Positions 475-21,944 of a stretch of 21,944 nt of DNA are shown piece by piece (positions within the stretch are counted from its first letter, which is position 1; each line of letters begins with the position of its first letter). The notes beneath the pieces are model-generated. The model searched no databases and was not told where the DNA came from. It saw only the letters and a list, made by a program, of their open reading frames with translations. A program made the translations under genes and the position numbers. This DNA is from a bacterium (GTDB lineage: Bacteria > Arandabacterota > Arandabacteria > Arandabacterales > JALGWA01), in the NCBI GenBank assembly GCA_050125095.1, contig JASFEA010000040.1, positions 1 to 21,944 of the forward strand, written 5' to 3'.

Positions 475-503
475 TTGACCCCGGGCCGCGCCTGTGTTAG
501 ATT
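475..503 (+). promoter_or_regulatory. sigma70-type promoter for block 1
   Basis: TTGACC (475-480), 17-bp spacer, extended -10 TG (495-496) and TAGATT (498-503), lying 20 bp upstream of ATG 524. Confidence 0.65.
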
Positions 504-523
504 CTCCCCCACAAGAGGGGAGT

Positions 524-3210: not shown

Positions 3211-3221
3211 GGAGTTGGCGA

Positions 3222-5372: not shown

Positions 5373-5374
5373 CG

Positions 5375-7797: not shown

Positions 7798-7853
7798 CGT
7801 TGTGCATTCCAAGACCTGACCCCTGATCGTTGTGCATTCCAAGACCTGACCCC
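7798..7853 (+). repeat. Two perfect 26-bp direct repeats (30-bp period)
   Basis: CGTTGTGCATTCCAAGACCTGACCCC at 7798-7823 and 7828-7853, separated by TGAT. Confidence 0.95.
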
Positions 7854-7855
7854 GA

Positions 7856-7884
7856 TTGACACCTCCCGGTCTCGGTGTTATACT
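7856..7884 (+). promoter_or_regulatory. Strong sigma70-type promoter of the nucleobase-catabolism operon
   Basis: Consensus TTGACA (7856-7861), 17-bp spacer, extended -10 TG (7876-7877) and TATACT (7879-7884). Confidence 0.85.
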
Positions 7885-7889
7885 ATGCT

Positions 7890-7983
7890 GCCGCCCTGTA
7901 GCGGCTTTAATTTAGGCGTTCACCCTGATTCCGGAGGCAACGACGCCGGGACGGGTGAGCGTCCTCCCCGAAGAGAAAGAGTT
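7890..7983 (+). promoter_or_regulatory. Structured 5' leader (two hairpins)
   Basis: GCCGC/GCGGC stem (7890-7905) followed by TTTAATTTA. Long hairpin 7915-7963 with an 11-bp outer stem and a 6-bp inner stem. Confidence 0.45.
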
Positions 7984-8847
7984 ATGACCAGGACAGTGAA
8001 GTGCGCCCTCATTCAGACGGGATGCCCCGACGCGTCAGGCGAGATTGAGGCCGTCAAAGAGGCCATGATCTCGAAGCAGATTCCGATGATAGAGCGGGCG
8101 GCGTACCGTGGCTCCAACATAGTCTGTCTTCAGGAGCTCTTCTACTCGCCCTATTTCCCGGCGGGCGAAGACCTCAGGTGGCTTGAAGTCGCCGAGAGCG
8201 TGCCGGGAGAGACGACGGCCAGGATGGGCGACCTGGCAAAGCGCCTGGGCATAGTGCTCATCGTCCCCATTGCCGAGACGGCCGGCGGCAAGTGCTTCAA
8301 CACTGCGGTCGTCATGGGCACGGACGGGGCCGTAAAGGGCAAATACCGCAAAGTCCATCTGCCCGACCTGGTGGGCTTCCGCGAGAAGTTCTATTTCGAA
8401 CCCGGCGACATGGGTTACCCGGTTTTCGAAACCGAGTTCGCCCGGCTGGGCATTTATGTATGTTACGACAGGCACTTCCCGGAAGGGGCGAGGGCGCTGG
8501 GCCTTAAGGGAGCGGAGATAGTCTTCAACCCTTCCGCCACCATAGAGGGCCTGTCGCGGCATCTGTGGGACATCGAGCAGAGGGGGCACGCGGTGGCGAA
8601 CGGCTACTTCGTCGGAGCCTTGAACCGCGTGGGCCGCGAGAAGCCCTGGGAGAGCGGCAAGTTCTACGGTTCGAGTTATTTCTGCGACCCGGCGGGCAAA
8701 GTCCTTGCAAAGGGAAGCGATTCAGGCGACGATATCGTTGTCGCCGACCTCGACCTTTCTATGATTGAAAGCGTGAGAGATCTCTGGCATTTCTATGAAG
8801 GCAGGAGACCCGAGACCTACGGGGATCTTGTCAAACCGCCGCAATAG
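7984..8847 (+). CDS. Nitrilase-superfamily amidohydrolase, beta-ureidopropionase (N-carbamoyl-beta-alanine amidohydrolase)-like, 287 aa
   Basis: Glu-Lys-Cys triad motifs CLQELF, KYRKVH, VCYDRHFPEG, plus EKFYFEPG and FYGSSYF. Adjacent to preA and dihydropyrimidinase. Start set at ATG 7984 because the ORF-track extension runs through the promoter and repeat. Confidence 0.88.
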   Translation: MTRTVKCALIQTGCPDASGEIEAVKEAMISKQIPMIERAAYRGSNIVCLQELFYSPYFPAGEDLRWLEVAESVPGETTARMGDLAKRLGIVLIVPIAETAGGKCFNTAVVMGTDGAVKGKYRKVHLPDLVGFREKFYFEPGDMGYPVFETEFARLGIYVCYDRHFPEGARALGLKGAEIVFNPSATIEGLSRHLWDIEQRGHAVANGYFVGALNRVGREKPWESGKFYGSSYFCDPAGKVLAKGSDSGDDIVVADLDLSMIESVRDLWHFYEGRRPETYGDLVKPPQ

Positions 8848-8868
8848 ACCAGGGTATGGAGTTGGGCA

Positions 8869-10113
8869 ATGCTTAGCACCGAGTTCTGTGGTTTTGCGCT
8901 CACCAGCCCATTCCTCTTGGCATCGGGCCCTGCCACGCGCGACGCAGGCCACATCGTAAGAGGTCTCGAGGCCGGCTGGGCGGGCGCGGTGACGAAGACC
9001 ATCTCCCTGGAGCCCTCGTCGGGCATACGTCTGAGTCCCCGTTTCGCGAACGTGTGCGGGGGATTCTTAAACCTGGAGCTCCTGAGCGACCGGGGTCTCG
9101 ACGCATGGCTTGCGGACTTAGAAGAGATCAAGAGGTCATTTCCCGACCGGCTGCTCGTAGCGAGCATCGCCGCACCGGCGTACAAGCTCGGCGACTGGAA
9201 GATGATGTCGGAGGCATGCGCGCGCGCCGGCGCGGATGCGCTTGAACTCAATCTCTCCTGCCCCCACGGGATCAGCAGCAATGACATGGGCATCACCATA
9301 GGGCAGAGCCCGGAGCTCACCCGCGAGGTGACCGGCGCCGTATGCGAGGCGGCCGATGTGCCCGTCATGGTCAAGCTGGGCTCCAACGTGGGAGACGTCG
9401 CCACGGTGGCGGCCGTGGCGGAGCGGGCCGGCGCCGCCTCCGTGTCGGCGATAAACACCGTCCCCGGGCTCGGAGAGATAGACATAGAGAATCTCATGAT
9501 CGCGCCTTCGATTGACGGCCTCACCTCGACCGGCGGCCTTTCCGGCGCGCCGGTCAAGCCCATAGCTCTCAGGGTGGTGGCGGACGTCCGCAAGGCGACT
9601 TCGCTCGAGGTGAGCGGCATAGGCGGCATCATGACCTGGCAGGACGCATGCGAGTTCATACTGGTGGGCGCCAGGACGGTGCAGGTCTGCACAGGGGTCA
9701 TGCTCAAGGGATTCGGATTGATAGACGACCTCAAGCGGGGCCTCGCCGATTACATGATGCGAAAGCGTCTGGCGGGGCTGCGGGCGGTGGAGGGCCGCCT
9801 GCTGGAGAGCATAGTCACCTACGGGGAGCTCAGGATGACGACGTCGGCCCCGCGCATAAGAACCGACCTCTGCCGGCGGGATGACCTGTGTTACATATCC
9901 TGCAGGGACGCCGGCGGAAACGCTATTTCCTTGGGGCCCGACCGCTACCCCATAGTGGACATGGATAAATGCCTGGGCTGTTCTCTCTGTATGCAGGTCT
10001 GCCCGTCGCCCGGGTGCATAACCATGGAGGAGATCGGCGGCGAGGCGGCGGGCGATCTTCCCGGCGGGGACCTGAGGGAAAACGAAAGGGAACATTATGG
10101 ATCTGGTGATTAG
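8869..10113 (+). CDS. preA: Dihydropyrimidine dehydrogenase FMN subunit PreA (PydA-like) with C-terminal ferredoxin-like domain
   Basis: SPFLLASGP, GWAGAVTKT, NLELLSDR, LELNLSCPHG (catalytic Cys loop), GGLSGAPVKPIAL, VQVCTGVM. C-terminal Cys motifs CRRDDLCYISC and CLGCSLCMQVCP. Confidence 0.9.
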   Translation: MLSTEFCGFALTSPFLLASGPATRDAGHIVRGLEAGWAGAVTKTISLEPSSGIRLSPRFANVCGGFLNLELLSDRGLDAWLADLEEIKRSFPDRLLVASIAAPAYKLGDWKMMSEACARAGADALELNLSCPHGISSNDMGITIGQSPELTREVTGAVCEAADVPVMVKLGSNVGDVATVAAVAERAGAASVSAINTVPGLGEIDIENLMIAPSIDGLTSTGGLSGAPVKPIALRVVADVRKATSLEVSGIGGIMTWQDACEFILVGARTVQVCTGVMLKGFGLIDDLKRGLADYMMRKRLAGLRAVEGRLLESIVTYGELRMTTSAPRIRTDLCRRDDLCYISCRDAGGNAISLGPDRYPIVDMDKCLGCSLCMQVCPSPGCITMEEIGGEAAGDLPGGDLRENEREHYGSGD

Positions 10114-11485
10114 GGGCGGGACCGTTGTAGATGAGGGCGGTCCCTATAAGGGCGACATAGGCGTGAAGGGCGGCAAGGTCGCGGCCATATACTCGCCCGG
10201 AAGCGGCGTCGAGGGGAAGGCTACCATCGACGCCGCCGGCAAGCTCGTCCTGCCCGGTGTCATCGACGTGCACGTGCATATGGAAATACCGTTCTGCGGG
10301 ACGGTCTCTTCGGATGATTTCACCACGGGCTCAATCGCGGCGGCGTTCGGCGGCGTGACGACGATGATCGACTTCGCCATACAGACAGAGGGCGGAACGC
10401 TCGCCGAGGCCGTCGAGAGGAGAAAGGGCCTCGCCGCGGCCAAGAGCGCCGTCGATTTCGGACTCCACTGCGGCATCACCGACTGGAACCAGAAGACGCG
10501 CGGGGAGATGAAGGAGATCGTCGAGGCCGGGGTGCCGAGCTTCAAGCTCTTCATGATCTACAAGGAAGAGGGGTGGATGGCCGACGACGGCATCATGTTC
10601 GAATGCTTCGAGGAGGCGGCGTCCATTGGCGCAACCGTATGCGTTCACGCCGAGAATCCCCACATTATAGACGTCTTCACCCGCCGCGCACTGGAGTCGG
10701 GAAGGACGGACGCGGTGCAGCAGTCGCTCTCAAGGCCCAATTTCTCGGAGAGCGAGGCGGTGCAGCGGGCCATATACCTGGCGTCCGTGAGCGGCGCGAG
10801 GATTTACATAGTGCATATGTCCACCTCAGAGGCGGCCCGTATCGTCGAGGAGTGGCTGTCCTGCGGATACCCGGCCTTCGCGGAGACCTGCCCGCAGTAT
10901 CTGATGCTGAATAACAGGGCTTTCGAGGGGCCCGACGGCCATCTCTATGCCACATGTCCGCCGATACGCTTCGAGGAGGACTGCGACTACTTGTGGGGCG
11001 CCGTCGCGGACGGTTCGATCCAGGTCGTTTCCACGGATCACTGCAGCTTCACGCGCAAGCAGAAGGACATGTGGGGGGGCGATTTCAGGAAGATCCCCTT
11101 CGGCCTTCCCGGCGTCGAGACGCTGCTCCCCATACTGATGACCCACGGTGTAAATGAAGGCCGTTTCCCCCTGGGGAGGCTGGTCGAAGTGCTGTGCACT
11201 AATCCCGCGAGGCTCTTCGGGCTCTATCCCGAGAAGGGCACGCTCAGCGTCGGGAGCGACGCGGATATCATAATCATAGACCCCGCCAGGGAGACGAAGA
11301 TCACTCCTCAGAACCTCCACATGAACTGCGATTACTCCCCGTATGAAGGCGAGACGCTCGTGGGGTTCCCGGATGTGACCGTACAGCGGGGCAAAATCAT
11401 AGTGAAGGACGGGGATTTCCTCGGCGCCGCGGGAGACGGGCGTTTCGTCAAGAGAGCCGCACAGGGAGGTGGCGAGCTTGGGTAA
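10097..11485 (+). CDS. hydA: Dihydropyrimidinase / D-hydantoinase (HydA/HyuA-like)
   Basis: PGVIDVHVH, GGVTTMIDF, SFKLFM (carbamylated Lys), VHAEN, IVHMST, ETCPQYL, STDHC, DYSPYEG. Confidence 0.93.
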   Translation: MDLVIRGGTVVDEGGPYKGDIGVKGGKVAAIYSPGSGVEGKATIDAAGKLVLPGVIDVHVHMEIPFCGTVSSDDFTTGSIAAAFGGVTTMIDFAIQTEGGTLAEAVERRKGLAAAKSAVDFGLHCGITDWNQKTRGEMKEIVEAGVPSFKLFMIYKEEGWMADDGIMFECFEEAASIGATVCVHAENPHIIDVFTRRALESGRTDAVQQSLSRPNFSESEAVQRAIYLASVSGARIYIVHMSTSEAARIVEEWLSCGYPAFAETCPQYLMLNNRAFEGPDGHLYATCPPIRFEEDCDYLWGAVADGSIQVVSTDHCSFTRKQKDMWGGDFRKIPFGLPGVETLLPILMTHGVNEGRFPLGRLVEVLCTNPARLFGLYPEKGTLSVGSDADIIIIDPARETKITPQNLHMNCDYSPYEGETLVGFPDVTVQRGKIIVKDGDFLGAAGDGRFVKRAAQGGGELG

Positions 11486-12704
11486 GGTGACAGGCCTGGT
11501 CTGCCTCAAATGCGGCAAGAGATTCGCCGGGGGCGAGCACATCACTTGCCCGGACTGCGGGCTCGAAGGCATATTCGATGTGGAATACGACTATGACGAA
11601 CTCCGCCACTCGCTAAAAGAGAGCCCGCTTCAGTCGAGGCATGTCAACAACATCTTCAGATACCAGGATTTCCTTCCCCTCTCCGAGCCCGCGCCCGGAA
11701 TGCTCAAGGTCGGGATGACGCCTCTATACAGGTTCGAGAAGATGACTGAACTTACGGGCGTCGACGAAGTCTATCTCAAGGATGACACCGTAAATCCGAG
11801 CAGCTCGCTGAAGGACCGCGCCTCGGCTGTGGGTATCGCCATGGCCGTTGAAGACGGCCGCCGGGCCATCGCGTGCGCTTCCACCGGCAATGCGGCGTCG
11901 TCCCTGGCTGTGCTTTCGGCCTCTGTCGGCGTGGATTCATACATATTCGTGCCCGAGAGCGCTCCCGAGCCGAAGCTTTACCAGATCGGTGCATGCGCCA
12001 CGAAGGTGTTCCGGGTGAAGGGAACTTATGAGGATGCCTTCGATGTGGCCACCGAAGCCATTGAGAAGTGGGGATGGTACAATCGAAACTGCGCCATCAA
12101 TCCATACCTGGTTGAAGGCAAGAAGACGTGTTCGCTGGAGATATACGAGCAGCTCGGGTACTGCGTGCCCGACTGGCTGGTCGTTCCCGTTGGCGACGGC
12201 TGCATATTGAGCGGCCAGTACAAGGCCTTCAAGGACCTTAAGGCCGCCGGCGTCACGGACCGCATACCCAGGATACTGGGGGTACAGGCGGAGGGCTGCA
12301 GCCCCGTGGTGGAGTGCTTTCATGGGAAGGGGGAGCCCTATTGCGCCGAACCGAACACGCTGGCCGACAGCATCAGGGTGGGCAAACCCAGGAACTGGAG
12401 GAAGGCGCTCAAAGCGCTCAACGAATCGGAAGGGGCGGCCGTGACCGTGAGTGACGACGAGATCGTCTCCGCGATCGAACTGCTCGGCAGACACACCGGG
12501 GTTTTCGCCGAGCCGGCCGGTTCCACGGCGTTCGCCGGACTCATTCGCGCAGCGGGTGAGGGCATAATAGAGAAAGACGAGAGGGTGGTATTCCTGGTCA
12601 CGGGGAGCGGGCTCAAGGATCCGGAGAGCCTCAAGTCACGCGACCTTATCACCGACGTCGGTCGCGATATCCGGGAGGTAGAGCGGGCGCTCGAGAGCGC
12701 TTGA
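11478..12704 (+). CDS. thrC: Threonine synthase-like PLP-dependent enzyme (fold type II), 408 aa
   Basis: N-terminal zinc ribbon CLKC...CPDC, NPSSSLKDRA (PLP Lys), ASTGNAA, EGKKT, VPVGDG, FAEPAG, TGSGLKD. TTG 11478 is preferred over GTG 11469 because GGAGG (11465-11469) is correctly spaced for it. The family is clear but the substrate is uncertain. Confidence 0.85.
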   Translation: MGKVTGLVCLKCGKRFAGGEHITCPDCGLEGIFDVEYDYDELRHSLKESPLQSRHVNNIFRYQDFLPLSEPAPGMLKVGMTPLYRFEKMTELTGVDEVYLKDDTVNPSSSLKDRASAVGIAMAVEDGRRAIACASTGNAASSLAVLSASVGVDSYIFVPESAPEPKLYQIGACATKVFRVKGTYEDAFDVATEAIEKWGWYNRNCAINPYLVEGKKTCSLEIYEQLGYCVPDWLVVPVGDGCILSGQYKAFKDLKAAGVTDRIPRILGVQAEGCSPVVECFHGKGEPYCAEPNTLADSIRVGKPRNWRKALKALNESEGAAVTVSDDEIVSAIELLGRHTGVFAEPAGSTAFAGLIRAAGEGIIEKDERVVFLVTGSGLKDPESLKSRDLITDVGRDIREVERALESA

Positions 12705-12804
12705 GCGGCTATGGGCCGGGGCGGCCCTGAGCCGGGCGGACCAGCGCTTGAACGCACCGGCGCCGGGCGGCTGGTTGCCGGGCGGCAGGCGGCAGGGGAG
12801 CAGC

Positions 12805-13281
12805 ATGAAGCAGATAAAGATAACCCTTAAGGTCAACGGCGAGGACATCGAGGCGGAAGTCCCTCCGGCCCTGACCCTGCTTAGCCTCCTGAGGGACGGT
12901 CTCGGGCTTACGGGGACCAGGCAGGGTTGCGGGAAGGGCGATTGCGGAACCTGCACCGTGCTCGTCGACGACAGACCTGTCCTATCGTGCATAATGTTCG
13001 CGTTCCAGGCGGACGGCAAGTCCATAACGACAATCGAAGGCGTCTCAAACGGCGATCGCCTGAGCCGCATACAGGAGCTCTTCGTCGAGCGCGGCGCCAT
13101 TCAATGCGGGTTTTGCACTCCCGCGATGATACTCGTCGGCGAGTCCCTTCTCAGGGAGAACCCGAAGCCGGCGCGTGAGGATGTGAGGGAAGCCATCTCG
13201 GGCGTGCTCTGCAGATGCACGGGTTATAAGAAGATCGTCGACGCCATCGAGGAGGCTGGCAGGGAAGGCGAAAGGGGGTAG
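12805..13281 (+). CDS. Molybdenum-hydroxylase small (2x[2Fe-2S]) subunit, CoxS/xanthine dehydrogenase family, 158 aa
   Basis: GTRQGCGKGDCGTCTV, ITTIEG, QCGFCTP, LCRCTGY. SD GGGGAG before ATG 12805. Confidence 0.93.
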   Translation: MKQIKITLKVNGEDIEAEVPPALTLLSLLRDGLGLTGTRQGCGKGDCGTCTVLVDDRPVLSCIMFAFQADGKSITTIEGVSNGDRLSRIQELFVERGAIQCGFCTPAMILVGESLLRENPKPAREDVREAISGVLCRCTGYKKIVDAIEEAGREGERG

Positions 13282-13284
13282 GAA

Positions 13285-13710
13285 TTGGTAACGGGCAGAA
13301 GCGGCAATCTCCTGCTTATCCGTCTTGTTCACGGCGACGACCTCCTTGAGAGTCTCAAGGCGGTTCTCGCCCGCGAGGGCGTGACTTCGGGCGTGCTGCT
13401 CGGCGGTGTGGGCATGCTGAGCGACGCGGTGCTCGGTTACTATGCCGGTGACGGTGAGTATGAGACTCTCGACGTGGGTGAAGAGGTGGAGCTCTGCGCC
13501 TTGAGCGGCAATATCTCGACTTTCGAGGGCGAGCATGTGATTCACATGCACGTGGCAGCCGGCCGGAAGGACGGCAGCGCGGTAGCCGGACATCTGGTGT
13601 CGGCCAGAGTACATATGACGCATGAACTCGCCGTGATGGTCTCGGATACCGCAATGGTTCGGAAAGTTGATGAGGAAACAGGGCTGAAGCTGCTCTGGTT
13701 CGAATCTTGA
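13285..13710 (+). CDS. PPC/DUF296 domain protein
   Basis: IRLVHGDDLLESL, GGVGMLS, ELCALSGNIS, HMHVAAG, GHLVSA (His-rich metal-site pattern of DUF296). Confidence 0.88.
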   Translation: MVTGRSGNLLLIRLVHGDDLLESLKAVLAREGVTSGVLLGGVGMLSDAVLGYYAGDGEYETLDVGEEVELCALSGNISTFEGEHVIHMHVAAGRKDGSAVAGHLVSARVHMTHELAVMVSDTAMVRKVDEETGLKLLWFES

Positions 13711-13732
13711 GCGACTAGGAGGAGGTAGAGTG

Positions 13733-14902
13733 ATGAAACTTGCTGAGAGAATGTCAAGGCTCGGTACCGAGAGCGCCTTCGAAGTCCTGGCGCGGGCCAA
13801 GGCCCTCGAGGCCAAGGGCAAGGAGGTGATTCACCTCGAGATAGGGGAGCCGGATTTCGACACGCCAGATAACATAAGGAAGGCCGCCGAAAAGGCCATA
13901 TGGGACGGATACACCCATTACTCCGCGGCCCAGGGCATAGTAGAACTGCGCAATGCCGTAGCGGAGGTCGACTCGAAGCGCAAGAAGCTCGACATAAAAC
14001 CCGAGCAGGTGGTCGTTGTTCCCGGGGCCAAGCCCATCATGTTCTTCGGCATGCTCGCCCTGGTGAACGAGGGCGATGAAGTCATATACCCCAACCCGGG
14101 CTTCCCCATTTACGAGTCGGTGATAGAGTTCCTCGGCGCCAAGGCCGTGCCCATCCAGCTTCACGAGAGCAAGGGCTTCTCGCTGGATGTCGACGAGCTC
14201 AAGAGCAAAGTGACCTCGAAAACCAAGATGATGATCATCAATTCGCCGCAGAACCCTACGGGTGGAGTGGTCCCCAGGGAGGACCTCGAGACCGTAGCAA
14301 AGCTGGCGGTCGACAAGGACTTCTGGGTGCTCTCGGACGAAGTCTATTCCGAAATGGTATATGAAGGGCAGCACAACAGCATAGCCGTATTCCCGGGCAT
14401 GAGGGAACGTACCATCATTATCGACGGCTACTCCAAGACCTATGCGATGACGGGCTGGAGGCTTGGCTACGGCGTAATGCCCGAGGAGCTGGCGCAGGCC
14501 CTGACTCAGATTCAGATCAACGCCACCTCATGCACGTGCACATTCACCCAGGTCGCCGGGGTCGAGGGGATAAAGGGCGACCAGTCGGCGGCGAAGGCGA
14601 TGGTGGCAGAGTTCAAGAAGAGACGCGACGTCATAGTTGAGGGTCTCAACGCGATCGACGGCATAACCTGCCTGCTCCCGAAGGGGGCGTTCTACGTTTT
14701 CCCCAATATAAGCGGGACGGGCGTCAGCGCGCAGGAGCTCTCCGACAAGCTCTTAAACGATGGAGGAGTGGCCGTACTGCCGGGTACGGCGTTCGGGAGT
14801 TTCGGCGAAGGCTATCTCCGTCTCTCATATGCCAACTCCGTAGAGAACATCCAGAAGGCGCTGAAGAGCATCGAGAAGATAGTCGCCGGTCTCAAGAAGT
14901 GA
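13733..14902 (+). CDS. Class I/II PLP-dependent aminotransferase (aspartate aminotransferase-like), 389 aa
   Basis: HLEIGEPDFDTP, NSPQNPTG, SDEVY, DGYSKTYAMTGWRLG, GYLRLSYA. SD AGGAGGAGG. Confidence 0.93.
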   Translation: MKLAERMSRLGTESAFEVLARAKALEAKGKEVIHLEIGEPDFDTPDNIRKAAEKAIWDGYTHYSAAQGIVELRNAVAEVDSKRKKLDIKPEQVVVVPGAKPIMFFGMLALVNEGDEVIYPNPGFPIYESVIEFLGAKAVPIQLHESKGFSLDVDELKSKVTSKTKMMIINSPQNPTGGVVPREDLETVAKLAVDKDFWVLSDEVYSEMVYEGQHNSIAVFPGMRERTIIIDGYSKTYAMTGWRLGYGVMPEELAQALTQIQINATSCTCTFTQVAGVEGIKGDQSAAKAMVAEFKKRRDVIVEGLNAIDGITCLLPKGAFYVFPNISGTGVSAQELSDKLLNDGGVAVLPGTAFGSFGEGYLRLSYANSVENIQKALKSIEKIVAGLKK

Positions 14903-15711: not shown

Positions 15712-15718
15712 GACGGCG

Positions 15719-16330
15719 ATGGTTATTGACTGCGCGCTCCTGGCCGGCGGTTCGTCCAGGCGGATGGGGGAGCCCAAGCTGCTCCTCAATCTGGGAGGCC
15801 GCACCTTGTTCGAGCACGTACTCGCCGTTCACCTTGCGAGCCGGGTGCGCAGAGTATGCGCCGTGGTGCCGGGATGGCTCGACGGTTTTGGAGAGATAGT
15901 CAGGATGCGAACCTCCGGACGCGCGCATTTCGCCGTTCTCGACCGGGAGTGCGAGATGAGCGAGTCGCTGAAGACGGGTTGGAGGCGCATAATGCAGGCC
16001 GGGAAGCCCGACGCTGTGATGATCTCGCTGGCCGACATGCCGTTTGTCACGCCCGGCGTTATCGATTCGGTCCTGGACTGTTTCGCGGGCTCGGATTGTG
16101 AGATTTGCGTCCCGGTCTATGGCGGGAGGAGAGGCCATCCCGTCGTGCTTAGCGTGGATCTTGAGGAAGAGGTCCTCGGTCTCGAAGGCGATTGCGGTGC
16201 CCGTGCGGTGGTCCGGGGCGCGGGCCGGCGCGTCGCGGAAGTGCAGGTCGATACCGACGGAGTGCTGGTCGACATCGACACCTGCGAGGACTTCGAAGAG
16301 GCGAGAAGGAGGATGGATCAGGTTGGGTGA
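15719..16330 (+). CDS. mocA: Molybdenum cofactor cytidylyltransferase (MocA/YgfJ-like nucleotidyltransferase)
   Basis: LLAGGSSRRMG.PKLLL, MSESLK, LADMPFV, GRRGHPV, LEGDCGAR, DIDTCED. Confidence 0.85.
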   Translation: MVIDCALLAGGSSRRMGEPKLLLNLGGRTLFEHVLAVHLASRVRRVCAVVPGWLDGFGEIVRMRTSGRAHFAVLDRECEMSESLKTGWRRIMQAGKPDAVMISLADMPFVTPGVIDSVLDCFAGSDCEICVPVYGGRRGHPVVLSVDLEEEVLGLEGDCGARAVVRGAGRRVAEVQVDTDGVLVDIDTCEDFEEARRRMDQVG

Positions 16331-17111
16331 GGTCGAACGCGTTTTTGAGAAGGCGAGCGAGTGGCTTCGCGGCGGCCGCAAGATTTGCATGGCCACGATT
16401 ATCGAAACCAGGGGCTCTACGCCGCGGGCCGTCGGGGCCAAGATGGTCATATCCTCAAGCGGCGACAGGTTCGGTACGGTCGGCGGCGGGGCCGTCGAGA
16501 ATAAGGTTCTTGAAGCGGCGCCGGGAGTTCTGAGAACGGGGAAGCCGGTTGTGCTCGAGTTCTCCCTTACCGCCGAGAGTTCTGACCTGGATGCCGCCTG
16601 CGGCGGCGACATGAAGGTGTTCCTCGAAGCCCTGGGCGAGTACCGGGGCCTGTTCGTCATCGGGGCCGGCCATGTGGGCAGGGCGCTGGCGAGGGCCGCT
16701 GCTGCGGCCGGTTTCGCGGTGACCATGGCAGACGACCGCGAGGACCTGCTTAAGGGTGACGACATACCGCCGTCGGTGCGAACGGTGAAGGCGACGCCGG
16801 ACGACTTCGAGGGGCGTCTCTCCATGGACCCGGGCTCTTTTGTCGTCATCGCGACGCGGGGCCACTCCCTCGACAAGGAGTGGCTCGGGGCCGTGAGCGG
16901 CCTGGGGCTGAGATATGTCGGCATGGTTGGAAGCCGGCGCAAGATAGAAAGCGTCTATGGCGCGCTCCGGGATGAGGGTGTGCCAGAGGATTTCCTGAAA
17001 AGCGTTCACGCCCCTGTGGGCCTGGATATAGACGCGGAGACCCCGGAGGAGATAGCCGTGAGCATCACGGCGGAGCTCATCGGAGTCTGGCGGGGGAGTG
17101 GGCCTCAATGA
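16323..17111 (+). CDS. xdhC: XdhC/CoxI family Moco-insertion chaperone, ~262 aa
   Basis: GSTPRAVGAKM, GTVGGGAVE, ACGG, GAGHVG, ATRGHSLD, YVGMVGSRRK, APVGLDIDAETPEEIAVSI. Start TTG 16323 inferred from AGGAGG upstream; the ORF-track extension overlaps mocA. Confidence 0.88.
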   Translation: MGEVERVFEKASEWLRGGRKICMATIIETRGSTPRAVGAKMVISSSGDRFGTVGGGAVENKVLEAAPGVLRTGKPVVLEFSLTAESSDLDAACGGDMKVFLEALGEYRGLFVIGAGHVGRALARAAAAAGFAVTMADDREDLLKGDDIPPSVRTVKATPDDFEGRLSMDPGSFVVIATRGHSLDKEWLGAVSGLGLRYVGMVGSRRKIESVYGALRDEGVPEDFLKSVHAPVGLDIDAETPEEIAVSITAELIGVWRGSGPQ

Positions 17112-17929
17112 CCCTGGACCTGCCGCGCGTGATGGTCGCCGGAGCCGGGGAGCTCGGCTCGGCCGTGTGCCACCGGCTCAGGCGCTCGGGATTCGAGGTA
17201 GTCGCGACGGACATGGCAAAACCCCGCTGCATAAGGCGCAGGGTGTGCTTTGCGGTCGCGCTCGGATCGGGGAGCATGGAAGTGGAAGGGGTCGTCGCCG
17301 AAGAGGCCATGTCGCCGTCCGAGGCTGAAGATATCCTGGCGCGAGGATCGATAGCGGTCATCGCCGGTGAGTACAGGGCCCTCGTGGAAGTTCTCGGGGC
17401 CCGGGTGCTGGTGGATGCGACGCTGAGGAAGGGACACTCAGATAAGATTGCGGGGCTCGCGCCTCTTACGATAGGGCTGGGACCGGGCTTCGTGGCCGGC
17501 GAGACCTGCGATATCGTCATTGAAACCAACAGGGGCCACGACCTGGGACGGGTAATACGCAAGGGCGCCGCCGAGCCCGATACAGGAGTGCCCGGCGAAA
17601 TAATGGGGATGAGCAGGGAGCGGGTGGTCCGGGCGCCGGCCGAAGGCGTATTCGGCGCCGGCATAGCGCTGGGGAGCCTGGTCGATAAGGGTGACGTTTT
17701 GGGCGAGATCGATGGCGTGACGGAAGTCCGCGCCCCTATCTCAGGCGTTTTGCGTGGCCTTATCGTTGACGGCGCGGCTGTCCAAATGGGCCAGAAGATG
17801 GGAGACGTGGATCCGCGGGGCGCCTCAATCGACGTCAATACGATTTCGGATAAGGGCAGGGCCGTGGCGGGAGGAGTGCTGGAAGCAGTTGTGTCCTGGT
17901 GGGTGGAGAGATGCATGAATTCGAACTGA
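17108..17929 (+). CDS. yqeB: Selenium-dependent molybdenum hydroxylase system protein YqeB (EF2563-like)
   Basis: GAGELGSAV, IRRRVCFA, VDATLRK, IGLGPGF.AG, IETNRGHDLG, PDTGVPG, GVLRGLI, GDVDPRG, ISDKGRAVAGGVLEA. ATGA overlap with xdhC. Confidence 0.92.
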   Translation: MTLDLPRVMVAGAGELGSAVCHRLRRSGFEVVATDMAKPRCIRRRVCFAVALGSGSMEVEGVVAEEAMSPSEAEDILARGSIAVIAGEYRALVEVLGARVLVDATLRKGHSDKIAGLAPLTIGLGPGFVAGETCDIVIETNRGHDLGRVIRKGAAEPDTGVPGEIMGMSRERVVRAPAEGVFGAGIALGSLVDKGDVLGEIDGVTEVRAPISGVLRGLIVDGAAVQMGQKMGDVDPRGASIDVNTISDKGRAVAGGVLEAVVSWWVERCMNSN

Positions 17930-18774
17930 TCAGACCCGGCAGCCTCGAGGAATGCCTGGACGCGCTGGCCGAGCACGGCGATCACGCTTCGGTGCTTGCA
18001 GGCGGGACCGACCTCAATATCCTCATGGATATGGGACTCAAGACTCCGGGATTCGTAATAGACATAGGCACGCTCGGGGAACTCCGTTTCCTGAGAGGCG
18101 AAGGCGGCCGGCAGGTCATAGGGGCCGCGTCGACACATGGCGACGTCAGGTCGGGTCTTGAGGGACTCTCCTGTCTCTCGCTTGCGTCCGGGTCGGTGGG
18201 TTCGCCGCAAATAAGAAACGTGGCGACCGTCGGCGGAAATATAGCCAACGCATCCCCTTCAGGAGACGCCTTCCCGCCGCTGCTTGCGCTTGATGCGGTG
18301 GTGGCGCTGGCAAGCAGCCGGGGCGAGCGTGAAGTCGCTCTCCGGGACCTCGCGACCGGGCCCGGCGAGACAGCGATAGAGCCGGACGAGCTCATTACGC
18401 ATGTCTCCTTCGACCTGCCCGGCGACGGCGCATACACCGACTTCGTTAAAGTCGGCCTGAGGAACGCGCTCGCAATTTCGGTCGCCAGCGCGGCGATCGT
18501 GGCGCGCGGCGACGGAAAGGCCCTGACCGATGTCAGGATCGCATGCGGCGCGGTGGCTCCGAGGGCTATAAGAATGCATGACGTGGAGGATATCATAACC
18601 GGCAGGCAGCCGGAGAGGGCGCTCATTGAGGAGGCCGCGAAGGCGGCAACCTCGATCTGCTGTCCCATCAGCGACATCAGGGGTACGGCGGAATACAGGC
18701 GCCATGTCACGGGCGTCATAGTGTCCCGCCTTGTTGAGAACGCCTTCACGCGCCTTGCCGGCTACAGGAGATAA
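17911..18774 (+). CDS. Molybdenum-hydroxylase FAD-binding medium subunit (CoxM/XdhB family), 287 aa
   Basis: LAGGTDL, VGSPQIRNVATVGGNIANASPSGD, KVGLRNALAIS, PISDIRGTAEYR. GGAG before ATG 17911. Confidence 0.92.
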   Translation: MHEFELIRPGSLEECLDALAEHGDHASVLAGGTDLNILMDMGLKTPGFVIDIGTLGELRFLRGEGGRQVIGAASTHGDVRSGLEGLSCLSLASGSVGSPQIRNVATVGGNIANASPSGDAFPPLLALDAVVALASSRGEREVALRDLATGPGETAIEPDELITHVSFDLPGDGAYTDFVKVGLRNALAISVASAAIVARGDGKALTDVRIACGAVAPRAIRMHDVEDIITGRQPERALIEEAAKAATSICCPISDIRGTAEYRRHVTGVIVSRLVENAFTRLAGYRR

Positions 18775-18791
18775 GCGCAGGAGCGCATACA

Positions 18792-20000
18792 ATGCCGGAT
18801 ATGCTTGCAGGCAAAATTCTCGCGGCGGCCCGCGGAGAGGAGAATTACATCTCCGGTTTCCTGAGGGACCTCATACGCATCCGCAGCCTGAGCTGCAAGG
18901 AAGGGGAAGCCGCGGAGTACATAGGGAGGGAGATGGAAAAACTCCCCCTTGATGACCTGTTCACGGATTCTATCGGGAATGTCGTAGCCAGATACGGGAC
19001 CGGTAAACGGGTCGTGCTTTACGATTCGCATATGGACACGGTGGATATAGGCGATCCCGCTGCCTGGAAGGTCGATCCATTCGAGGCGAAGCTCGAGAAC
19101 GGAGTGATCTACGGGCGCGGGGCGTCCGACAACAAGGGCGGGCTTGCGGCCATGATGGGCGGGCTTAAGGTCCTCTCCGCTCTCGGCGGGCAGGGCGACT
19201 TCAGCCTTTACATGGTGTGTATCGTTCAGGAAGAAGTCTGCGAGGGTCTTGCCCTCAGCGTGTTCCTGGAGGAGCATGGCCTTGCGCCCGACTGCGTAGT
19301 GCTCAGCGAGTGCACGAACCTCGGCATTTGCAGGGGCCACAGGGGCCGGGCGGAGATAGAGATAGTGACCAGGGGGATATCCTGTCACGGCAGCGCGCCG
19401 GAACGGGGCGATAACGCTCTCTACAAGATGGCGCCCGTGCTCGATTCCATAAAGTACATGAACGGTCATCTCAAAGAAGACCCTTTCCTCGGTAAGGGCT
19501 CGATAGCCGCAACGAAGCTCGAATGCGAGACTCCCTCTGTGAACGCTATCCCGGACATGTGCAGGGCGTTTATAGACAGGCGCACAGTCCCCGGGGAGAC
19601 CGCCGAAAGCGTGGCTCGCGAGCTCGACGAGGTGGTGAGGGCGGTGCGGGGAGAGGTGCGGCTATCCACTTTCTCGAGGCCGAGCTACAGAGGATACGTG
19701 AAGGAGAGAGAGAAGTTCTTCCCGGCATGGTCCCTCGAGGAGAAAGCTCATGAACTCGGGAGCGCGAAGCTGTCATGCCGGCTCCTCTTCGGCGAGGAAC
19801 CGAGGACCGGACGCTGGCTTTTCTCAACCGACGGCAATTACTCCATGGGCACAAGGTCGATACCGACGTTCGGTTTCGGGCCCGGCGAGGAACATCACGC
19901 CCATACTGCCCAAGACCAGGTAAGGGTAGAGGACCTCTCGAAAGCCGCGGCTTTTTACGCCCTCTTCCCGTTTGTCTATGCCGGAGACGTGACGGAATAG
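18792..20000 (+). CDS. ygeY: YgeY-family M20 metallohydrolase (selenium/purine-catabolism linked)
   Basis: DSHMDTV, GRGASDNKGG, VQEEVCEG, GHRGRAEI, HGSAPERGDNA, FLGKGS, FSTDG, GFGPGEE..AH. Confidence 0.87.
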   Translation: MPDMLAGKILAAARGEENYISGFLRDLIRIRSLSCKEGEAAEYIGREMEKLPLDDLFTDSIGNVVARYGTGKRVVLYDSHMDTVDIGDPAAWKVDPFEAKLENGVIYGRGASDNKGGLAAMMGGLKVLSALGGQGDFSLYMVCIVQEEVCEGLALSVFLEEHGLAPDCVVLSECTNLGICRGHRGRAEIEIVTRGISCHGSAPERGDNALYKMAPVLDSIKYMNGHLKEDPFLGKGSIAATKLECETPSVNAIPDMCRAFIDRRTVPGETAESVARELDEVVRAVRGEVRLSTFSRPSYRGYVKEREKFFPAWSLEEKAHELGSAKLSCRLLFGEEPRTGRWLFSTDGNYSMGTRSIPTFGFGPGEEHHAHTAQDQVRVEDLSKAAAFYALFPFVYAGDVTE

Positions 20001-20016
20001 GAAAAGAGGTAATCTG

Positions 20017-21372
20017 GTGGCAGAAAGCGACCTCTTCATCGAGCGTCAGGGCGACGGCTGCGAGAGCAGGCCTCTTGCCGACCGCATGCGCCCCCGGAAT
20101 TTCGACGAGTTCGTCGGGCAGGACCAGGTCATAGGCCCGGACAGCGTCCTCAGAAAGGCGATCGAGAAGGGCGAGATCCAGTCGGTGATTTTCTGGGGCC
20201 CTCCCGGGACGGGCAAGACCACCCTGGCGCATATAATTGCGGGGATCACGGGCTCGGGTTTCGTCGCTTTCAGCGCGGTCACCTCGGGCGTCAAAGATAT
20301 TCGTGAAGTGGTGTCGACCGCCGAGATGAACCTCAATCTCAAGGGACAGAAGACTATTCTCTTTGTCGACGAGATACACCGCTTCAACAAGGCGCAACAG
20401 GATGCTTTCCTGCCCCATGTGGAGAAGGGCACCATCATATTGATAGGAGCGACAACCGAGAACCCTTCCTTTGAAGTCAACTCGGCGCTCCTCTCGCGCT
20501 CGAGCGTGGTCATGCTCAATAAGCTCACACCACAAGACCTTAAGGAGATTGTCGCTCGCGCGCTCGAAGATAAGGATCGGGGCCTGGGCGGTCTCAAGAT
20601 CAAGGTCAGCGGAGAGGCTCTCGACCACATGGTGACGCATGCCGACGGCGATGCGCGAATCGCGCTCAACGCGCTTGAACTGGCGCTCGCGGCCACGGCG
20701 CCCGGCAGTCGCGGGTTGAGAGAGATTGACCTTAAGACCATAGAGGGTGCGCTCCAGAAAAAGGCCCTCCTCTATGACAAGATGGGTGAAGAGCATTACA
20801 ATATCATCTCCGCGCTGCACAAGAGCCTGAGGGGCAGCGACCCGGACGCGGCTCTTTACTGGCTCGCCAGAATGCTGGAGGCCGGCGAGAACCCGCTCTA
20901 TATCGCGCGAAGGTTGATAAGGTTCGCGTCCGAGGATATAGGCAACGCCGATCCCCAGGCCCTCGTGGTCGCGGTTGCCGCGAAGGACGCCGTGCATTTC
21001 ATCGGCATGCCCGAGGGAGACCTGGCCCTGGCCCAGGCCGTCCTCTATCTGGCGACGGCGCCCAAGAGCAACGCGGTGTACACGGCGTATATAAGAGCCA
21101 GGGACGACGTCAACTCCAGGGAGGCCCCGCCGGTTCCCCTTCATATCAGGAACGCCCCGACGCGCCTGATGAAGGAGATGGGATTCGGGGAGGGTTATGA
21201 GTATCCCCATGAGGACCCCGACGCGGTCGTCGACCAGGAGTACATGGCCGGAAGCCTCAAGGGGCGGCGCTATTACGAGCCTACGAGCCGGGGCTATGAG
21301 GCCACCATAAAGAAGAGACTGGACAAGTGGAGGAAAATACTGGAATCGAGAAGGAGGGACAGGCGTGAGTGA
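20017..21372 (+). CDS. rarA: Replication-associated recombination protein A (RarA/MgsA AAA+ ATPase)
   Basis: PLADRMRP, Walker A GPPGTGKT, Walker B FVDEIHRFNKAQQD, GATTENPSF, SALHKSLRGSDPDAA, PKSNAVY, YEYPHE. Confidence 0.96.
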   Translation: MAESDLFIERQGDGCESRPLADRMRPRNFDEFVGQDQVIGPDSVLRKAIEKGEIQSVIFWGPPGTGKTTLAHIIAGITGSGFVAFSAVTSGVKDIREVVSTAEMNLNLKGQKTILFVDEIHRFNKAQQDAFLPHVEKGTIILIGATTENPSFEVNSALLSRSSVVMLNKLTPQDLKEIVARALEDKDRGLGGLKIKVSGEALDHMVTHADGDARIALNALELALAATAPGSRGLREIDLKTIEGALQKKALLYDKMGEEHYNIISALHKSLRGSDPDAALYWLARMLEAGENPLYIARRLIRFASEDIGNADPQALVVAVAAKDAVHFIGMPEGDLALAQAVLYLATAPKSNAVYTAYIRARDDVNSREAPPVPLHIRNAPTRLMKEMGFGEGYEYPHEDPDAVVDQEYMAGSLKGRRYYEPTSRGYEATIKKRLDKWRKILESRRRDRRE

Positions 21373-21944
21373 ACCGGCGATGGGACGAGCCAGGACGATG
21401 GTTATCGCGCTCGGCGGCAACTCCATCATTCCTGCCGGCAAACAGGGGACTATCGAAGAGCAGATTGAACTCACCAACGCGACAATGCAGCACGTCGCAG
21501 ACATCATCAAGAGAGGCCACCTGGTCGTGCTCACTCACGGCAACGGGCCGGTTGTGGGAAACATATTCTTGAGAAGCGAAATGGCCAAGGAGGTCATCCC
21601 GCCCATGCCGCTCGATGTATGCGGCGCGGACTCCGAGGGAGGCATCGGGTATATGATGCAGCAGTGCCTTCAGAACGAGCTCAGGAAGATGGGCATAGAC
21701 AAAGACGTGATAACTATCATCACGCAGGTGGTCGTCGACGGGCACGATCCCGCTTTCGAGAATCCGACCAAGCCGATCGGGCCTTTCTACACGCAGGAGG
21801 AGGCGAGCTATATCGCAAAGGCCAAGGGGTGGACCATCGTCGAGGACAGCGGCAGGGGCTACCGCCGCGTCGTTCCATCGCCGAAGCCGCGGCAGATAGT
21901 CGAATTCAGGGCGATAAAGCACGCGATAGACTCGGGAGCGATCG
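21365..21944 (+). CDS. arcC: Carbamate kinase (ArcC/YqeA), 3'-truncated by window
   Basis: Not in the ORF track because it has no stop in the window. GTG 21365 follows GGAGG (21353-21357): MSEPAMGRARTMVIALGGNSI...THGNGPVVG...PLDVCGADSEGGIGY...DPAFENPTKPIGPFY...GRGYRRVVPSPKP. Confidence 0.93.
   Translation, partial: MSEPAMGRARTMVIALGGNSIIPAGKQGTIEEQIELTNATMQHVADIIKRGHLVVLTHGNGPVVGNIFLRSEMAKEVIPPMPLDVCGADSEGGIGYMMQQCLQNELRKMGIDKDVITIITQVVVDGHDPAFENPTKPIGPFYTQEEASYIAKAKGWTIVEDSGRGYRRVVPSPKPRQIVEFRAIKHAIDSGAI

Follow-up and report, generated by a model that had tools for sequence, protein, structure and literature searches.

Why does a single stretch of bacterial DNA carry genes of reductive pyrimidine degradation in one row with genes of selenium-dependent Mo hydroxylases and anaerobic purine breakdown? 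The question is raised by the window, the whole stretch of 21,944 nucleotides analysed here, which is one entire contig (C40) of genome G000. We approached it through gene identities, synteny and phyletic patterns, all of them directly observable. In our preferred reading, to which we give a probability of roughly 0.65, the operon represents the form that the anaerobic reductive urate (2,8-dioxopurine) cluster takes in this order, with a pyrimidine-type module joined to its head in one genus.

The operon and its leader

As the original prediction stated, positions 7984-21944 hold 15 tightly packed, mostly overlapping or abutting genes, all on the + strand. The features are as follows.

7799..7853, +: 25-nt repeat, two tandem copies (7799-7823 and 7829-7853)
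7856..7884, +: sigma-70-type promoter, TTGACA-17 nt-TATACT, with TG before the -10 hexamer (11/12 positions match)
7885..7983, +: conserved leader of about 100 nt
7984..8847, +: CN hydrolase, beta-ureidopropionase-like (PydC type), 287 aa (PF00795)
8869..10113, +: PreA-type FMN/4Fe-4S dihydropyrimidine dehydrogenase subunit, 414 aa (NF006183, 395.9 bits, cut-off 335; PF01180 and Fer4_21)
10097..11485, +: HyuA/D-hydantoinase-dihydropyrimidinase, 462 aa (TIGR02033, 482.4 bits, cut-off 393)
11469..12704, +: ThrC-like fold-type-II PLP enzyme with an N-terminal Cys4 ribbon, 411 aa; proposed YgeX substitute
12748..13281, +: Mo hydroxylase [2Fe-2S] small subunit, start codon uncertain (PF01799 and PF00111; XdhC/PucE-like scores)
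13285..13710, +: PCC/DUF296 protein, 141 aa (PF03479)
13730..14902, +: class-I (AspC-like) aminotransferase, 390 aa (PF00155; under every NCBIfam cut-off)
14899..15711, +: YqeC, selenium cofactor biosynthesis marker (TIGR03172, 132 bits, cut-off 73)
15719..16330, +: MocA-like Mo-cofactor cytidylyltransferase (PF12804; TIGR03310, 126 bits, under the cut-off of 186)
16323..17111, +: XdhC-family Mo-cofactor insertion chaperone (PF02625 and PF13478)
17108..17929, +: YqeB, selenium-dependent Mo-cofactor biosynthesis (TIGR03309, 281 bits, cut-off 220)
17899..18774, +: Mo hydroxylase FAD-binding medium subunit (PF00941 and PF03450)
18792..20000, +: YgeY M20 hydrolase, ureido-group cleavage by homology (NF009555, 438.8 bits, cut-off 321)
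20017..21372, +: RarA/MgsA AAA+ ATPase, housekeeping (PF12002, PF16193, PF00004)
21365..21943, +: carbamate kinase, N-terminal 193 residues (TIGR00746, positions 1-183 of 309)

The spacings between neighbours (negative for overlaps) are 21, -17, -17, 43, 3, 19 and -4 nt from gene 1 to gene 8 and 7, about -8, -4, -31, 17, 16 and -8 nt from gene 8 to gene 15, with the XdhC start taken as TTG at 16323. Because the contig stops within the operon, the carbamate kinase gene is truncated at 21943. Several entries in the predicted gene list had to be revised. Dihydropyrimidinase and HyuA, counted as two genes, are one (10097-11485), and XdhC and YqeB are two genes, 37% and 48% identical to residues 2-250 (the N-terminal half) and 271-524 of E. 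coli YqeB, respectively. PCC/DUF296 and class-I aminotransferase genes are also present. Gene 14 encodes no pathway enzyme but the housekeeping RarA/MgsA, the only RarA of the genome, which keeps its position at 74-78% identity across the order.

The strong single promoter that had been proposed is borne out by the near-consensus site at 7856-7884, both hexamers of which are invariant in four aligned genus-level sequences. It is the best of five promoter-like sites, a count not above chance since shuffled sequences average 4.0. The 15 genes are presumably co-transcribed; no + strand terminator-like site was found within the operon, the sole one lying in the leader (7886-7915). In the genus-level alignment the leader is more conserved than the flanking DNA, and at the predicted transcript start it carries a hairpin (GCCGC-CCTGTA-GCGGC) followed by TTTAATTT. 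It is a candidate operator, attenuator or riboswitch; its fold shows few covariations among three sequences, and an Rfam search of it returned no match. The 25-nt repeat is not specific to the operon, as roughly 200 copies (at most 4 mismatches, all contigs) are dispersed through the genome, and it is missing at the corresponding spot in G002 and L120.

A reductive urate cluster with parts on other contigs

HyuA, YgeY, YqeB, YqeC and PreA are identified above curated cut-offs. By homology, most of the operon genes belong to the reductive urate/2,8-dioxopurine pathway published with its enzyme roles in 2025 (PMC12507026; bioRxiv 10.1101/2025.04.24.650524), so the purine part, put forward in the original prediction as the best candidate for an undescribed system, is a described one. 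Like the published clusters, the operon groups HyuA and YgeY (each 39% identical to its E. coli counterpart), carbamate kinase (76-78% identity with the kinase in the sister family's cluster), YqeB, YqeC, MocA and the FAD and 2Fe-2S subunits of a Mo hydroxylase, and the genome also has SsnA, a DPD-type reductase, a carbamoyltransferase and SelD. It differs in that a ThrC-like PLP enzyme stands instead of YgeX, no YgeW equivalog was found in the genome (an OTC-like protein reaches 69 bits, cut-off 500), and SsnA, the reductase and every Mo large subunit are encoded away from the operon. The PCC, aminotransferase and RarA genes are extra, as are the beta-ureidopropionase-like hydrolase and PreA at the head. 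The aminotransferase and PCC/DUF296 genes are specific to this order's cluster. The former is 70-91% identical across the order, and further aminotransferases are encoded elsewhere in the genome; the latter occurs at 2 of 80 ThrC-like loci, both in this order, and every relative in the PDB is labelled 'hypothetical' or 'putative DNA-binding'.

When the rest of the genome was searched, SelD (two copies), SsnA, a fused PreT-PreA and three Mo large subunits (none within the window) were found; YgeX and a YgeW equivalog were not. Contigs C206 and C199 carry the row OTC-carbamate kinase-fused DPD (PreT-PreA)-SsnA, with a second carbamate kinase and the OTC-like carbamoyltransferase on C206. The nitrilase had been placed in the position of SsnA, which does not hold because SsnA is encoded on these contigs, beside the fused PreT-PreA. 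The presence of this member of the canonical set elsewhere in the genome tells in part against the original prediction. The proposed ATP gain through carbamate kinase requires a carbamoyltransferase, which is on C206 and not in the window. C54 carries one Mo large subunit and an 8-oxoguanine deaminase gene, and another large subunit is solitary (C24); C131 begins with PnrA and has ABC transporter genes as well. Three of four relatives examined have separate FAD and 2Fe-2S genes for the C54-type large subunit, only the FAD gene being detected in the fourth (G003). In other phyla, C24-type large subunits are encoded next to ThrC-like genes together with FAD and 2Fe-2S subunits, and the C24 subunit probably pairs with those of the operon.

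The proposed working follows homology to E. coli, C. difficile and C. sporogenes enzymes of assayed activity, and each substrate, as well as the activity of the ThrC-like enzyme, is predicted from sequence. A Se-Mo hydroxylase, made up of the operon's 2Fe-2S and FAD subunits and probably the C24 large subunit and matured by YqeB, YqeC, XdhC and MocA, would produce 2,8-dioxopurine. Reduction of the purine and opening of its first ring would fall to the fused PreT-PreA reductase and SsnA, and HyuA would open the second ring to give 2,3-diureidopropionate. One ureido group would be taken by the OTC-like carbamoyltransferase and carbamate kinase (operon or C206) with a yield of ATP, and the other removed by YgeY. 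The ThrC-like enzyme would then act in YgeX's stead, converting 2,3-diaminopropionate or albizziin to pyruvate and ammonia.

The pyrimidine-type module at the operon head

The same core is syntenic throughout the order. In the sister family it reads Metallophos-HHH-PreT-PreA-M28-TPR-[HyuA]-SsnA-ThrCl-(CysK)-2Fe2S-PCC-AT-YqeC-MocA-XdhC-YqeB-FAD-YgeY-(OTC)-RarA-CK-adenine deaminase-PnrA, M28 peptidase and TPR genes standing between PreT-PreA and the remaining cluster. The window's gene order is not unique to this genome. Two other members of the genus, G002 and G001, share it, as do independent metagenome contigs (PreA 99, 89 and 77% identical), and it is not an assembly artefact. The CN hydrolase and PreA stand at the operon head in this genus only, and since their orthologues in sister lineages occupy separate Pyd clusters, the operon is a physical and perhaps also a functional hybrid; the joining of pyrimidine and purine genes claimed in the original prediction is thus real here, and the two parts are separate loci in those lineages.

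The solved structures nearest to the CN hydrolase are beta-ureidopropionases (2vhh, 8pt4, 6ftq; E 5e-57 to 6e-53). Its orthologues, 51-59% identical, occur in Pyd clusters elsewhere, accompanying DHPase and PreA, with or without PreT, in G009, G003, G017, G019, G179 and G282. PreA forms its own lineage in the tree, with at most 47% identity outside the genus (301 genomes), and neither PreT nor a separate ferredoxin gene adjoins it. The likeness to the PydA-PydB-PydC cluster, of which Clostridium chromiireducens has a ferredoxin-dependent PydAc (PMC7332683), lies in the row of a beta-ureidopropionase-type CN hydrolase, a PreA-type reductase without adjoining Pyr_redox_2 and a dihydropyrimidinase-family amidohydrolase. 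PydAc has two C-terminal ferredoxin domains whereas the window's PreA has one, and the amidohydrolase belongs with the HyuA of purine clusters (59-64% identity to that of the sister family) and not with Pyd-cluster DHPases (42-51%). HyuA is single-copy in G000, G001 and G002 and is the sole gene of its type in G000; neither a uracil transporter nor a beta-alanine aminotransferase was recognised among the operon genes. The simplest reading of the CN hydrolase and PreA is a PydC/PydA pair. If HyuA is shared and also serves them as dihydropyrimidinase, pyrimidine and purine breakdown would both be driven from one promoter.

Alternatively, no pyrimidine is degraded and both proteins have been taken over by the urate route. 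PreA would then be a 2,8-dioxopurine reductase of the ferredoxin type, and the hydrolase would hydrolyse the 3-ureido group in albizziin or 2,3-diureidopropionate (alpha-substituted 3-ureidopropionates). The 2025 report (PMC12507026) describes such a reductase: UacX, a PydA homologue of the PreA/PydA type, replaces YgfK in C. difficile, so the PreA singled out as standing where ygfK is expected has a precedent. In G186 and G172, PreA-type genes (40-43% identical) are found no more than 3 kb from ThrC-like genes. The two proteins could serve the purine route because a CN hydrolase orthologue sits directly upstream of YgeY in G074 and another close to the Mo large subunit, ThrC-like and SsnA genes of a purine cluster in L083, YgeY occurs in 10 of 20 genomes with the orthologue against a base rate of 49/283, and G009 and G003, which carry a purine cluster, have their sole DHPase/HyuA-type gene in the CN hydrolase-PreA cluster. 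However, both steps would then be duplicated, as the genome has the fused PreT-PreA by SsnA and also YgeY; PreA is only 25-32% identical to the reductases (about 360 aa) of purine clusters and groups apart from them; and six of nine CN hydrolase orthologue loci examined are plain DHPase/PreA clusters without purine genes. We consider this alternative less likely, and prefer a pyrimidine-type module joined to a urate cluster.

The ThrC-like enzyme, a probable substitute for YgeX

The original prediction that a ThrC-like enzyme occurs where ygeX is expected agrees with our searches. In G000, TIGR03528 gave no match on the ThrC-like protein and one of 29 bits elsewhere, and YgeX was above cut-off in none of the 18 genomes of its class. 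The two enzymes share the PLP fold type and the same place in the cluster logic; the ThrC-like enzyme is not homologous to YgeX (2,3-diaminopropionate ammonia-lyase) at the family level. Around the 80 best-matching ThrC-like loci, drawn from many phyla by sequence similarity alone, a search with E. coli YgeX found none nearby (0/80); purine genes lie within 10 kb at most of them, including 2Fe-2S (40), YgeY (35), SsnA (26), OTC (25) and 8-oxoguanine-deaminase-like (23) genes. Outside the class, 44 genomes have a high-scoring ThrC-like protein and 37 of them also have YgeY, versus 49 of 283 genomes overall, an association that Fisher values overstate because related genomes are not independent. 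ThrC-like was found in 41 of those 49 YgeY genomes and YgeX in only 4. In the class of G284, where both enzymes occur, 46 genomes with YgeY of at least 600 bits comprise 11 with YgeX only, 29 with ThrC-like only, 6 with both and none with neither, a complementary pattern.

The protein retains the PLP lysine motif S-x-K-D-R of threonine synthases (2zsj, 6cgq, 2d1f, 1uim; E 1e-63 to 8e-56). These four and the canonical enzyme of G161 have GNT and NPxR[IL]EGQK, whereas all 80 best-matching ThrC-like sequences have S[ST]GNA and NP[YFH][LM]xEGKK, with Arg replaced by Leu/Met and the preceding Ser by Ala/Gly. In T. thermophilus ThrC, the GNT, Arg and Ser residues that are replaced here presumably bind the phosphate group of the substrate. 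The genes around the ThrC-like gene are those of purine catabolism and not hom/thrB. The protein may nonetheless be a true threonine synthase, since it scores 211 against TIGR00260 (cut-off 167) and the only other ThrC homologue of G000 (C11) also lacks the canonical motifs. It may also catalyse a reaction other than that of YgeX, because genomes with both enzymes exist (two more in a wider sample) and a long CysK-like PLP protein adjoins it at 27 of the 80 loci.

That the ThrC-like, aminotransferase, PCC and RarA genes are housekeeping genes (threonine/aspartate metabolism, DNA replication) merely sharing a purine transcript, the pathway stopping at 2,3-diaminopropionate or using some other lyase, would fit RarA inside the operon, the interposed M28 and TPR genes of the sister family, the true CysK adjoining ThrC-like in G009 and G003 and the automatic annotation as threonine synthase, but it is improbable given that the ThrC-like subfamily tracks YgeY across phyla near purine genes, leaves no YgeY genome of the G284 class without one of the two enzymes and has motifs unlike those of solved threonine synthases. 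We return to the urate cluster reading, in which the ThrC-like enzyme is, judged from motifs and distribution, a probable and so far unrecognised substitute for YgeX in many bacteria.

Layout of the operon and its match to the published purine pathway

The genome that holds the window, G000, is a 3.35-Mb metagenome-assembled genome in 268 contigs with 91% completeness, and the window is its 21.9-kb contig C40. From position 7984 to the contig end, 15 genes lie on the plus strand, separated by gaps of at most 43 nt or overlapping:

7984-8847, +, CN hydrolase
8869-10113, +, PreA
10097-11485, +, HyuA/dihydropyrimidinase
11469-12704, +, ThrC-like PLP enzyme
12748-13281, +, 2Fe-2S subunit of a Mo hydroxylase
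13285-13710, +, PCC/DUF296 protein
13730-14902, +, class-I aminotransferase
14899-15711, +, YqeC
15719-16330, +, MocA
16323-17111, +, XdhC
17108-17929, +, YqeB
17899-18774, +, FAD subunit of a Mo hydroxylase
18792-20000, +, YgeY
20017-21372, +, RarA/MgsA
21365-21943, +, carbamate kinase, cut at residue 193

The top promoter-like site, TTGACA-17-TATACT at 7856-7884, matches at 11 of 12 positions, and no terminator-like site was found on the plus strand inside the operon. An identical gene order is present in two other genomes of the genus and in independent metagenome contigs. Both this conservation and the tight packing bear out the 15-gene co-directional operon of the original prediction, and the physical fusion of purine genes with genes of the type found in reductive pyrimidine degradation (Pyd), which made it a "hybrid", is real. 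A metagenome scan with PreA returned contigs of the same genus only, three of the five loci being true matches. Gene maps of relatives were drawn by tblastn, since longest-ORF calls masked genes in high-GC DNA, as in G002 of the same genus.

Two papers of 2025 solved the 2,8-dioxopurine pathway, which is encoded by the ygeW-xdhD region of E. coli and by equivalent clusters in clostridia (PMC12507026; bioRxiv 10.1101/2025.04.24.650524). Urate is reduced to 2,8-dioxopurine by XdhD or the selenium-dependent DOPDH; purine reduction and ring opening are carried out by YgfK or the PydA-like UacX together with SsnA; HyuA yields 2,3-diureidopropionate; the two ureido groups are taken off by YgeY and by YgeW plus its kinase partner YqeA (or UacY, a hydrolase, in their place); and YgeX converts 2,3-diaminopropionate to pyruvate and ammonia. 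YqeB, YqeC and SelD are the markers of selenium dependence (PMC12507026; bioRxiv 10.1101/2025.04.24.650524).

HyuA, YgeY, YqeB, YqeC and PreA of the window all pass curated cut-offs, with 30-50% identity to the E. coli proteins. HyuA scores 482 against a TIGR02033 cut-off of 393 and is 39% identical to E. coli HyuA over 456 aa; YgeY scores 438.8 on NF009555 (cut-off 321) and 428 on TIGR03526 (321.5); YqeB scores 281 on TIGR03309 (220) and YqeC 132 on TIGR03172 (73). Other components lie elsewhere in the genome. Contigs C206 and C199 carry a cut, OTC-like carbamoyltransferase (69 bits on the YgeW models against cut-offs of 453 and 500), the second of the genome's two carbamate kinases, the other being that of the window, an 830-aa fused PreT-PreA and SsnA. 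SsnA is split between the two contigs: its N-terminal half, which adjoins the fused PreT-PreA on C206, covers positions 2-217 of 444 with 285 bits, and its C-terminal remainder is on C199. The YgfK equivalog reaches 134 bits against a cut-off of 835. SelD is encoded twice (398 and 355 bits), and the lower-scoring copy has a TGA in frame. The two genes occupy C26:10850-11773 and C59:10192-11112; one sits inside a 753-aa open frame and is perhaps a fusion, and the in-frame TGA of the other probably encodes selenocysteine.

The operon is thus a variant of the known purine pathway, and the original prediction is partly supported. Its assignment to anaerobic purine catabolism stands on the scores of HyuA, YgeY, YqeB and YqeC, but this purine part is a pathway already published. 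Of the genes it proposed to look for elsewhere in the genome, SsnA, two copies of SelD and three Mo large subunits were recovered, and YgfK stayed below its cut-off. A PreA that passes NF006183 is indeed in the window, but such an enzyme in the place of YgfK is already known as UacX. The proposal that the nitrilase takes the place of SsnA was wrong, as SsnA and a DPD-type reductase are encoded elsewhere in the genome.

Comparison with the sister family puts the operon in a longer conserved block. There the upstream part reads Metallophos-HHH-PreT-PreA-M28-TPR-[HyuA]-SsnA-ThrCl-(CysK)-2Fe2S and continues as PCC-AT-YqeC-MocA-XdhC-YqeB-FAD-YgeY-(OTC)-RarA-CK-adenine deaminase-PnrA. The window keeps the Metallophos, HHH, M28 and TPR flanks (494-7783) and lacks PreT-PreA and SsnA at the sister-family places; the CN hydrolase-PreA pair stands directly before HyuA instead. 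In the sister family (L025, L026; G004, G009), PreT-PreA precedes the purine genes and is flanked by HHH and the M28 peptidase; the unrelated M28 and TPR/TMEM260-like genes are therefore inside the conserved block. RarA, the sole RarA of the genome, keeps its place between YgeY and carbamate kinase across the order with 74-78% identity, which shows that the unit has housekeeping genes within it. A search of the G000 assembly found neither the C-terminus of the carbamate kinase nor an adenine deaminase. Contig C131 begins within a PnrA gene 81% identical to that of the sister family, and the operon therefore probably continues into C131 across an unassembled gap.

The ThrC-like enzyme as a proposed substitute for YgeX

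The original prediction set the ThrC-like enzyme, a fold-type-II PLP protein, in the position of YgeX, and this is supported by the absence of YgeX and by the phyletic pattern. In G000, 91% complete, TIGR03528 gave at most 29 bits and tblastn with E. coli YgeX gave no match. None of the 18 genomes of the class holds a YgeX over the cut-off, and 17 of the 18 hold a ThrC-like gene. A scan of the family alignment against one genome per species returned 582 relatives, and neighbourhoods were taken from the best 80 of them, which are 45-65% identical and belong to many phyla. Within 10 kb of these best 80 of 582 lie a 2Fe-2S subunit (40 loci), YgeY (35), a long CysK-like PLP protein (27), SsnA (26), an OTC-like protein (25) and an 8-oxoguanine-deaminase-like amidohydrolase (23); a match to E. 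coli YgeX was found within that distance at none of the 80.

A wide sample of 301 genomes has 283 outside the class. YgeY is present in 49 of the 283; a high-scoring ThrC-like gene is present in 44, of which 37 have YgeY. Four further YgeY genomes carry a lower-scoring ThrC-like gene beside YgeY, so that the total is 41 of 49, and YgeX is found in 4 of the 49. In the class of genome G284, YgeX is common (28 of 101 genomes). There, 46 genomes with a strong YgeY (600 bits or more) divide into 11 with YgeX only, 29 with the ThrC-like gene only, 6 with both and 0 with neither; the two enzymes thus occur together in some genomes. Because the genomes are related and not independent, a Fisher test overstates the association, but the pattern is plain.

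Two further gene associations were observed around the family. A lower-scoring YgeY paralogue of the M20 family, which scores 240-300 bits or shares 33-37% identity with the YgeY of the window, abuts the ThrC-like gene in many genomes (G315:C1, G368:C7, G372:C8, G353:C19, G378:C1, G343:C1, G336:C3, G311:C13; loci L039, L044, L047, L055, L060, L067, L073), which suggests a two-gene module of a decarbamoylase and a PLP enzyme. The long CysK-like protein, divergent and 450-490 aa in length, comes right after the ThrC-like gene and before YgeY at 27 of the best 80 loci (L106:11241-12623, L087:11305-12768, L095:5501-6862, L098:1402-2853 and L091:12414-13880 are examples); it is not YgeX, and it reaches no cut-off for cysteine synthase. 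A true CysK occupies the same place in G009 and G003 of the sister family.

The ThrC-like protein may yet be a genuine threonine synthase. It passes TIGR00260 with 211 against 167, while on PRK08197 it scores 296 against 303, and the sole other ThrC homologue of the genome, on C11, also lacks the canonical motifs. Against this, the motifs themselves are replaced. Four solved threonine synthases and the canonical ThrC of genome G161 have GNT and NPxR[IL]EGQK; in T. thermophilus ThrC, the phosphate of the substrate is bound by these residues. The two motifs are not kept in the ThrC-like protein of the window, and S[ST]GNA with NP[YFH][LM]xEGKK is present in 80 of 80 members among the best 80 of 582. 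A third ThrC subfamily shares 33-37% identity with the ThrC-like protein of the window and combines the Cys4 ribbon with an STGNL motif; the loci concerned are L136:1252-2340 and 2916-4160 (G161), L132-L135 and L137, and in G161 it adjoins the canonical ThrC.

The automatic name for the ThrC-like family is threonine synthase. A literature search joining threonine synthase with purine-cluster terms found no description of a ThrC-like protein in purine clusters, and "threonine synthase" and "nitrilase" have 0 occurrences each in PMC12507026. The published network analysis took Pfam family PF00291 as a whole for the colour of "YgeX" (PMC12507026), and YgeX and the ThrC-like proteins would therefore be lumped. 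In surveys of the pathway, YgeX is one of seven marker proteins (bioRxiv 10.1101/2025.04.24.650524).

The CN hydrolase-PreA pair, the Mo hydroxylase subunits and the leader

The nearest solved relatives of the CN hydrolase are fly and human beta-ureidopropionases (E values of 5e-57 to 6e-53). It reaches no NCBIfam equivalog cut-off, the top one being aguB with 227 bits against 410. Orthologues with 51-59% identity stand beside dihydropyrimidinase and PreA, at some loci together with PreT, in G009, G003, G017, G019, G179 and G282, and these loci are ordinary Pyd clusters apart from the purine cluster. PreA scores 395.9 on NF006183 (cut-off 335) and forms its own lineage in the tree; it is 36% identical to E. 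coli PreA, 42% to the PreT-linked PreA of the sister family, 25-32% to the reductases of about 360 aa inside purine clusters, and at most 47% to any protein outside the genus among the 301 genomes. It lacks a neighbouring PreT gene, and the GltD-like genes of G000 are all at other loci. HyuA is the single copy in each of three genomes of the genus and lies in this operon. Although it meets the dihydropyrimidinase family model, it is orthologous to purine-cluster HyuA (59-64% identity, versus 42-51% to the dihydropyrimidinases of Pyd clusters). A predicted PydC/PydA pair has thus been joined, at the level of the genus, to the purine operon next to the sole cyclic amidohydrolase.

The pair could also have been recruited to the purine route. 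The two routes run on parallel chemistry, and albizziin is the alpha-amino form of 3-ureidopropionate. An orthologue of the CN hydrolase abuts YgeY in G074, another is near the purine cluster in locus L083, YgeY occurs in 10 of 20 genomes that have the orthologue, and in G009 and G003 the only dihydropyrimidinase lies in the "Pyd" cluster. However, a reductase beside SsnA, as well as YgeY, is already in the genome.

FAD and 2Fe-2S subunits are encoded in the window and a Mo large subunit is not; three large subunits are on C24, C54 and C136, with 26-35% identity to E. coli XdhD. That on C24 is solitary, that on C136 belongs to a third Mo enzyme, and that on C54, XdhA-like, precedes an 8-oxoguanine deaminase gene at the contig end. 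In other phyla, C24-type large subunits are beside FAD and 2Fe-2S subunits that adjoin ThrC-like genes. Of four relatives examined, three have FAD and 2Fe-2S genes that belong to the C54-type large subunit itself, and in the fourth, G003, the FAD gene alone was detected; by elimination, the orphan small subunits of the window therefore most likely serve the solitary C24-type large subunit. Their feeding of PreA rather than a Mo enzyme was rejected as the main reading because four genes for Mo-cofactor and selenium maturation lie between the FAD and 2Fe-2S genes. The FAD-2Fe2S-XdhA-like operon that ends in 8-oxoguanine deaminase (C54:16434-19192; also L027, L028 and L030) keeps its order across relatives; its deaminase has 605 bits on NF006055 (cut-off 532), and in L029, a C54-type operon, the 2Fe-2S gene was not detected. 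Through this operon, oxidised guanine could be turned into urate.

Within the genus, the leader (7885-7983, about 100 nt) is more conserved than the surrounding coding DNA; it opens with a perfect hairpin and a T-rich run where the transcript is predicted to start. No Rfam family matched it or any other part of the window. Its role may lie in nucleobase control, as an operator, attenuator or riboswitch. An operator function was rejected for the 25-nt tandem repeat that precedes the promoter, as this repeat is dispersed genome-wide. This element, with a consensus close to TGTGCATTTCAAGACCTGACCCC, is at 7799-7853 and at about 200 sites on the contigs of the genome; it is intergenic, often paired, in tandem at a spacing of 30 nt or inverted at one of about 115 nt, and resembles a REP or MITE element.

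A possible terminal enzyme and its implications

Taken together, these data admit a tentative joint reading, to which we give a probability of roughly 40%. The ThrC-like protein would be a new enzyme of purine catabolism, a PLP-dependent lyase acting on 2,3-diaminopropionate (or albizziin) in place of YgeX. Across bacterial phyla it would be the more common last enzyme of the anaerobic 2,8-dioxopurine pathway, under the name of threonine synthase in all annotations. A pyrimidine module would in addition be fused to the pathway in this genus, one promoter and a shared cyclic amidohydrolase serving both nucleobase classes.

The part most worth pursuing is the ThrC-like family. The fusion with Pyd genes in this genus illustrates, modestly but clearly, the rebuilding of catabolic operons out of modules of parallel chemistry. 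In the samples searched, most genomes with YgeY are without YgeX and have the ThrC-like protein instead. If this protein does the last step, the pathway would be under-counted in sediments, soils and guts, a large family would be mis-named threonine synthase, and an alternative enzyme would be at hand for engineering urate-degrading strains.
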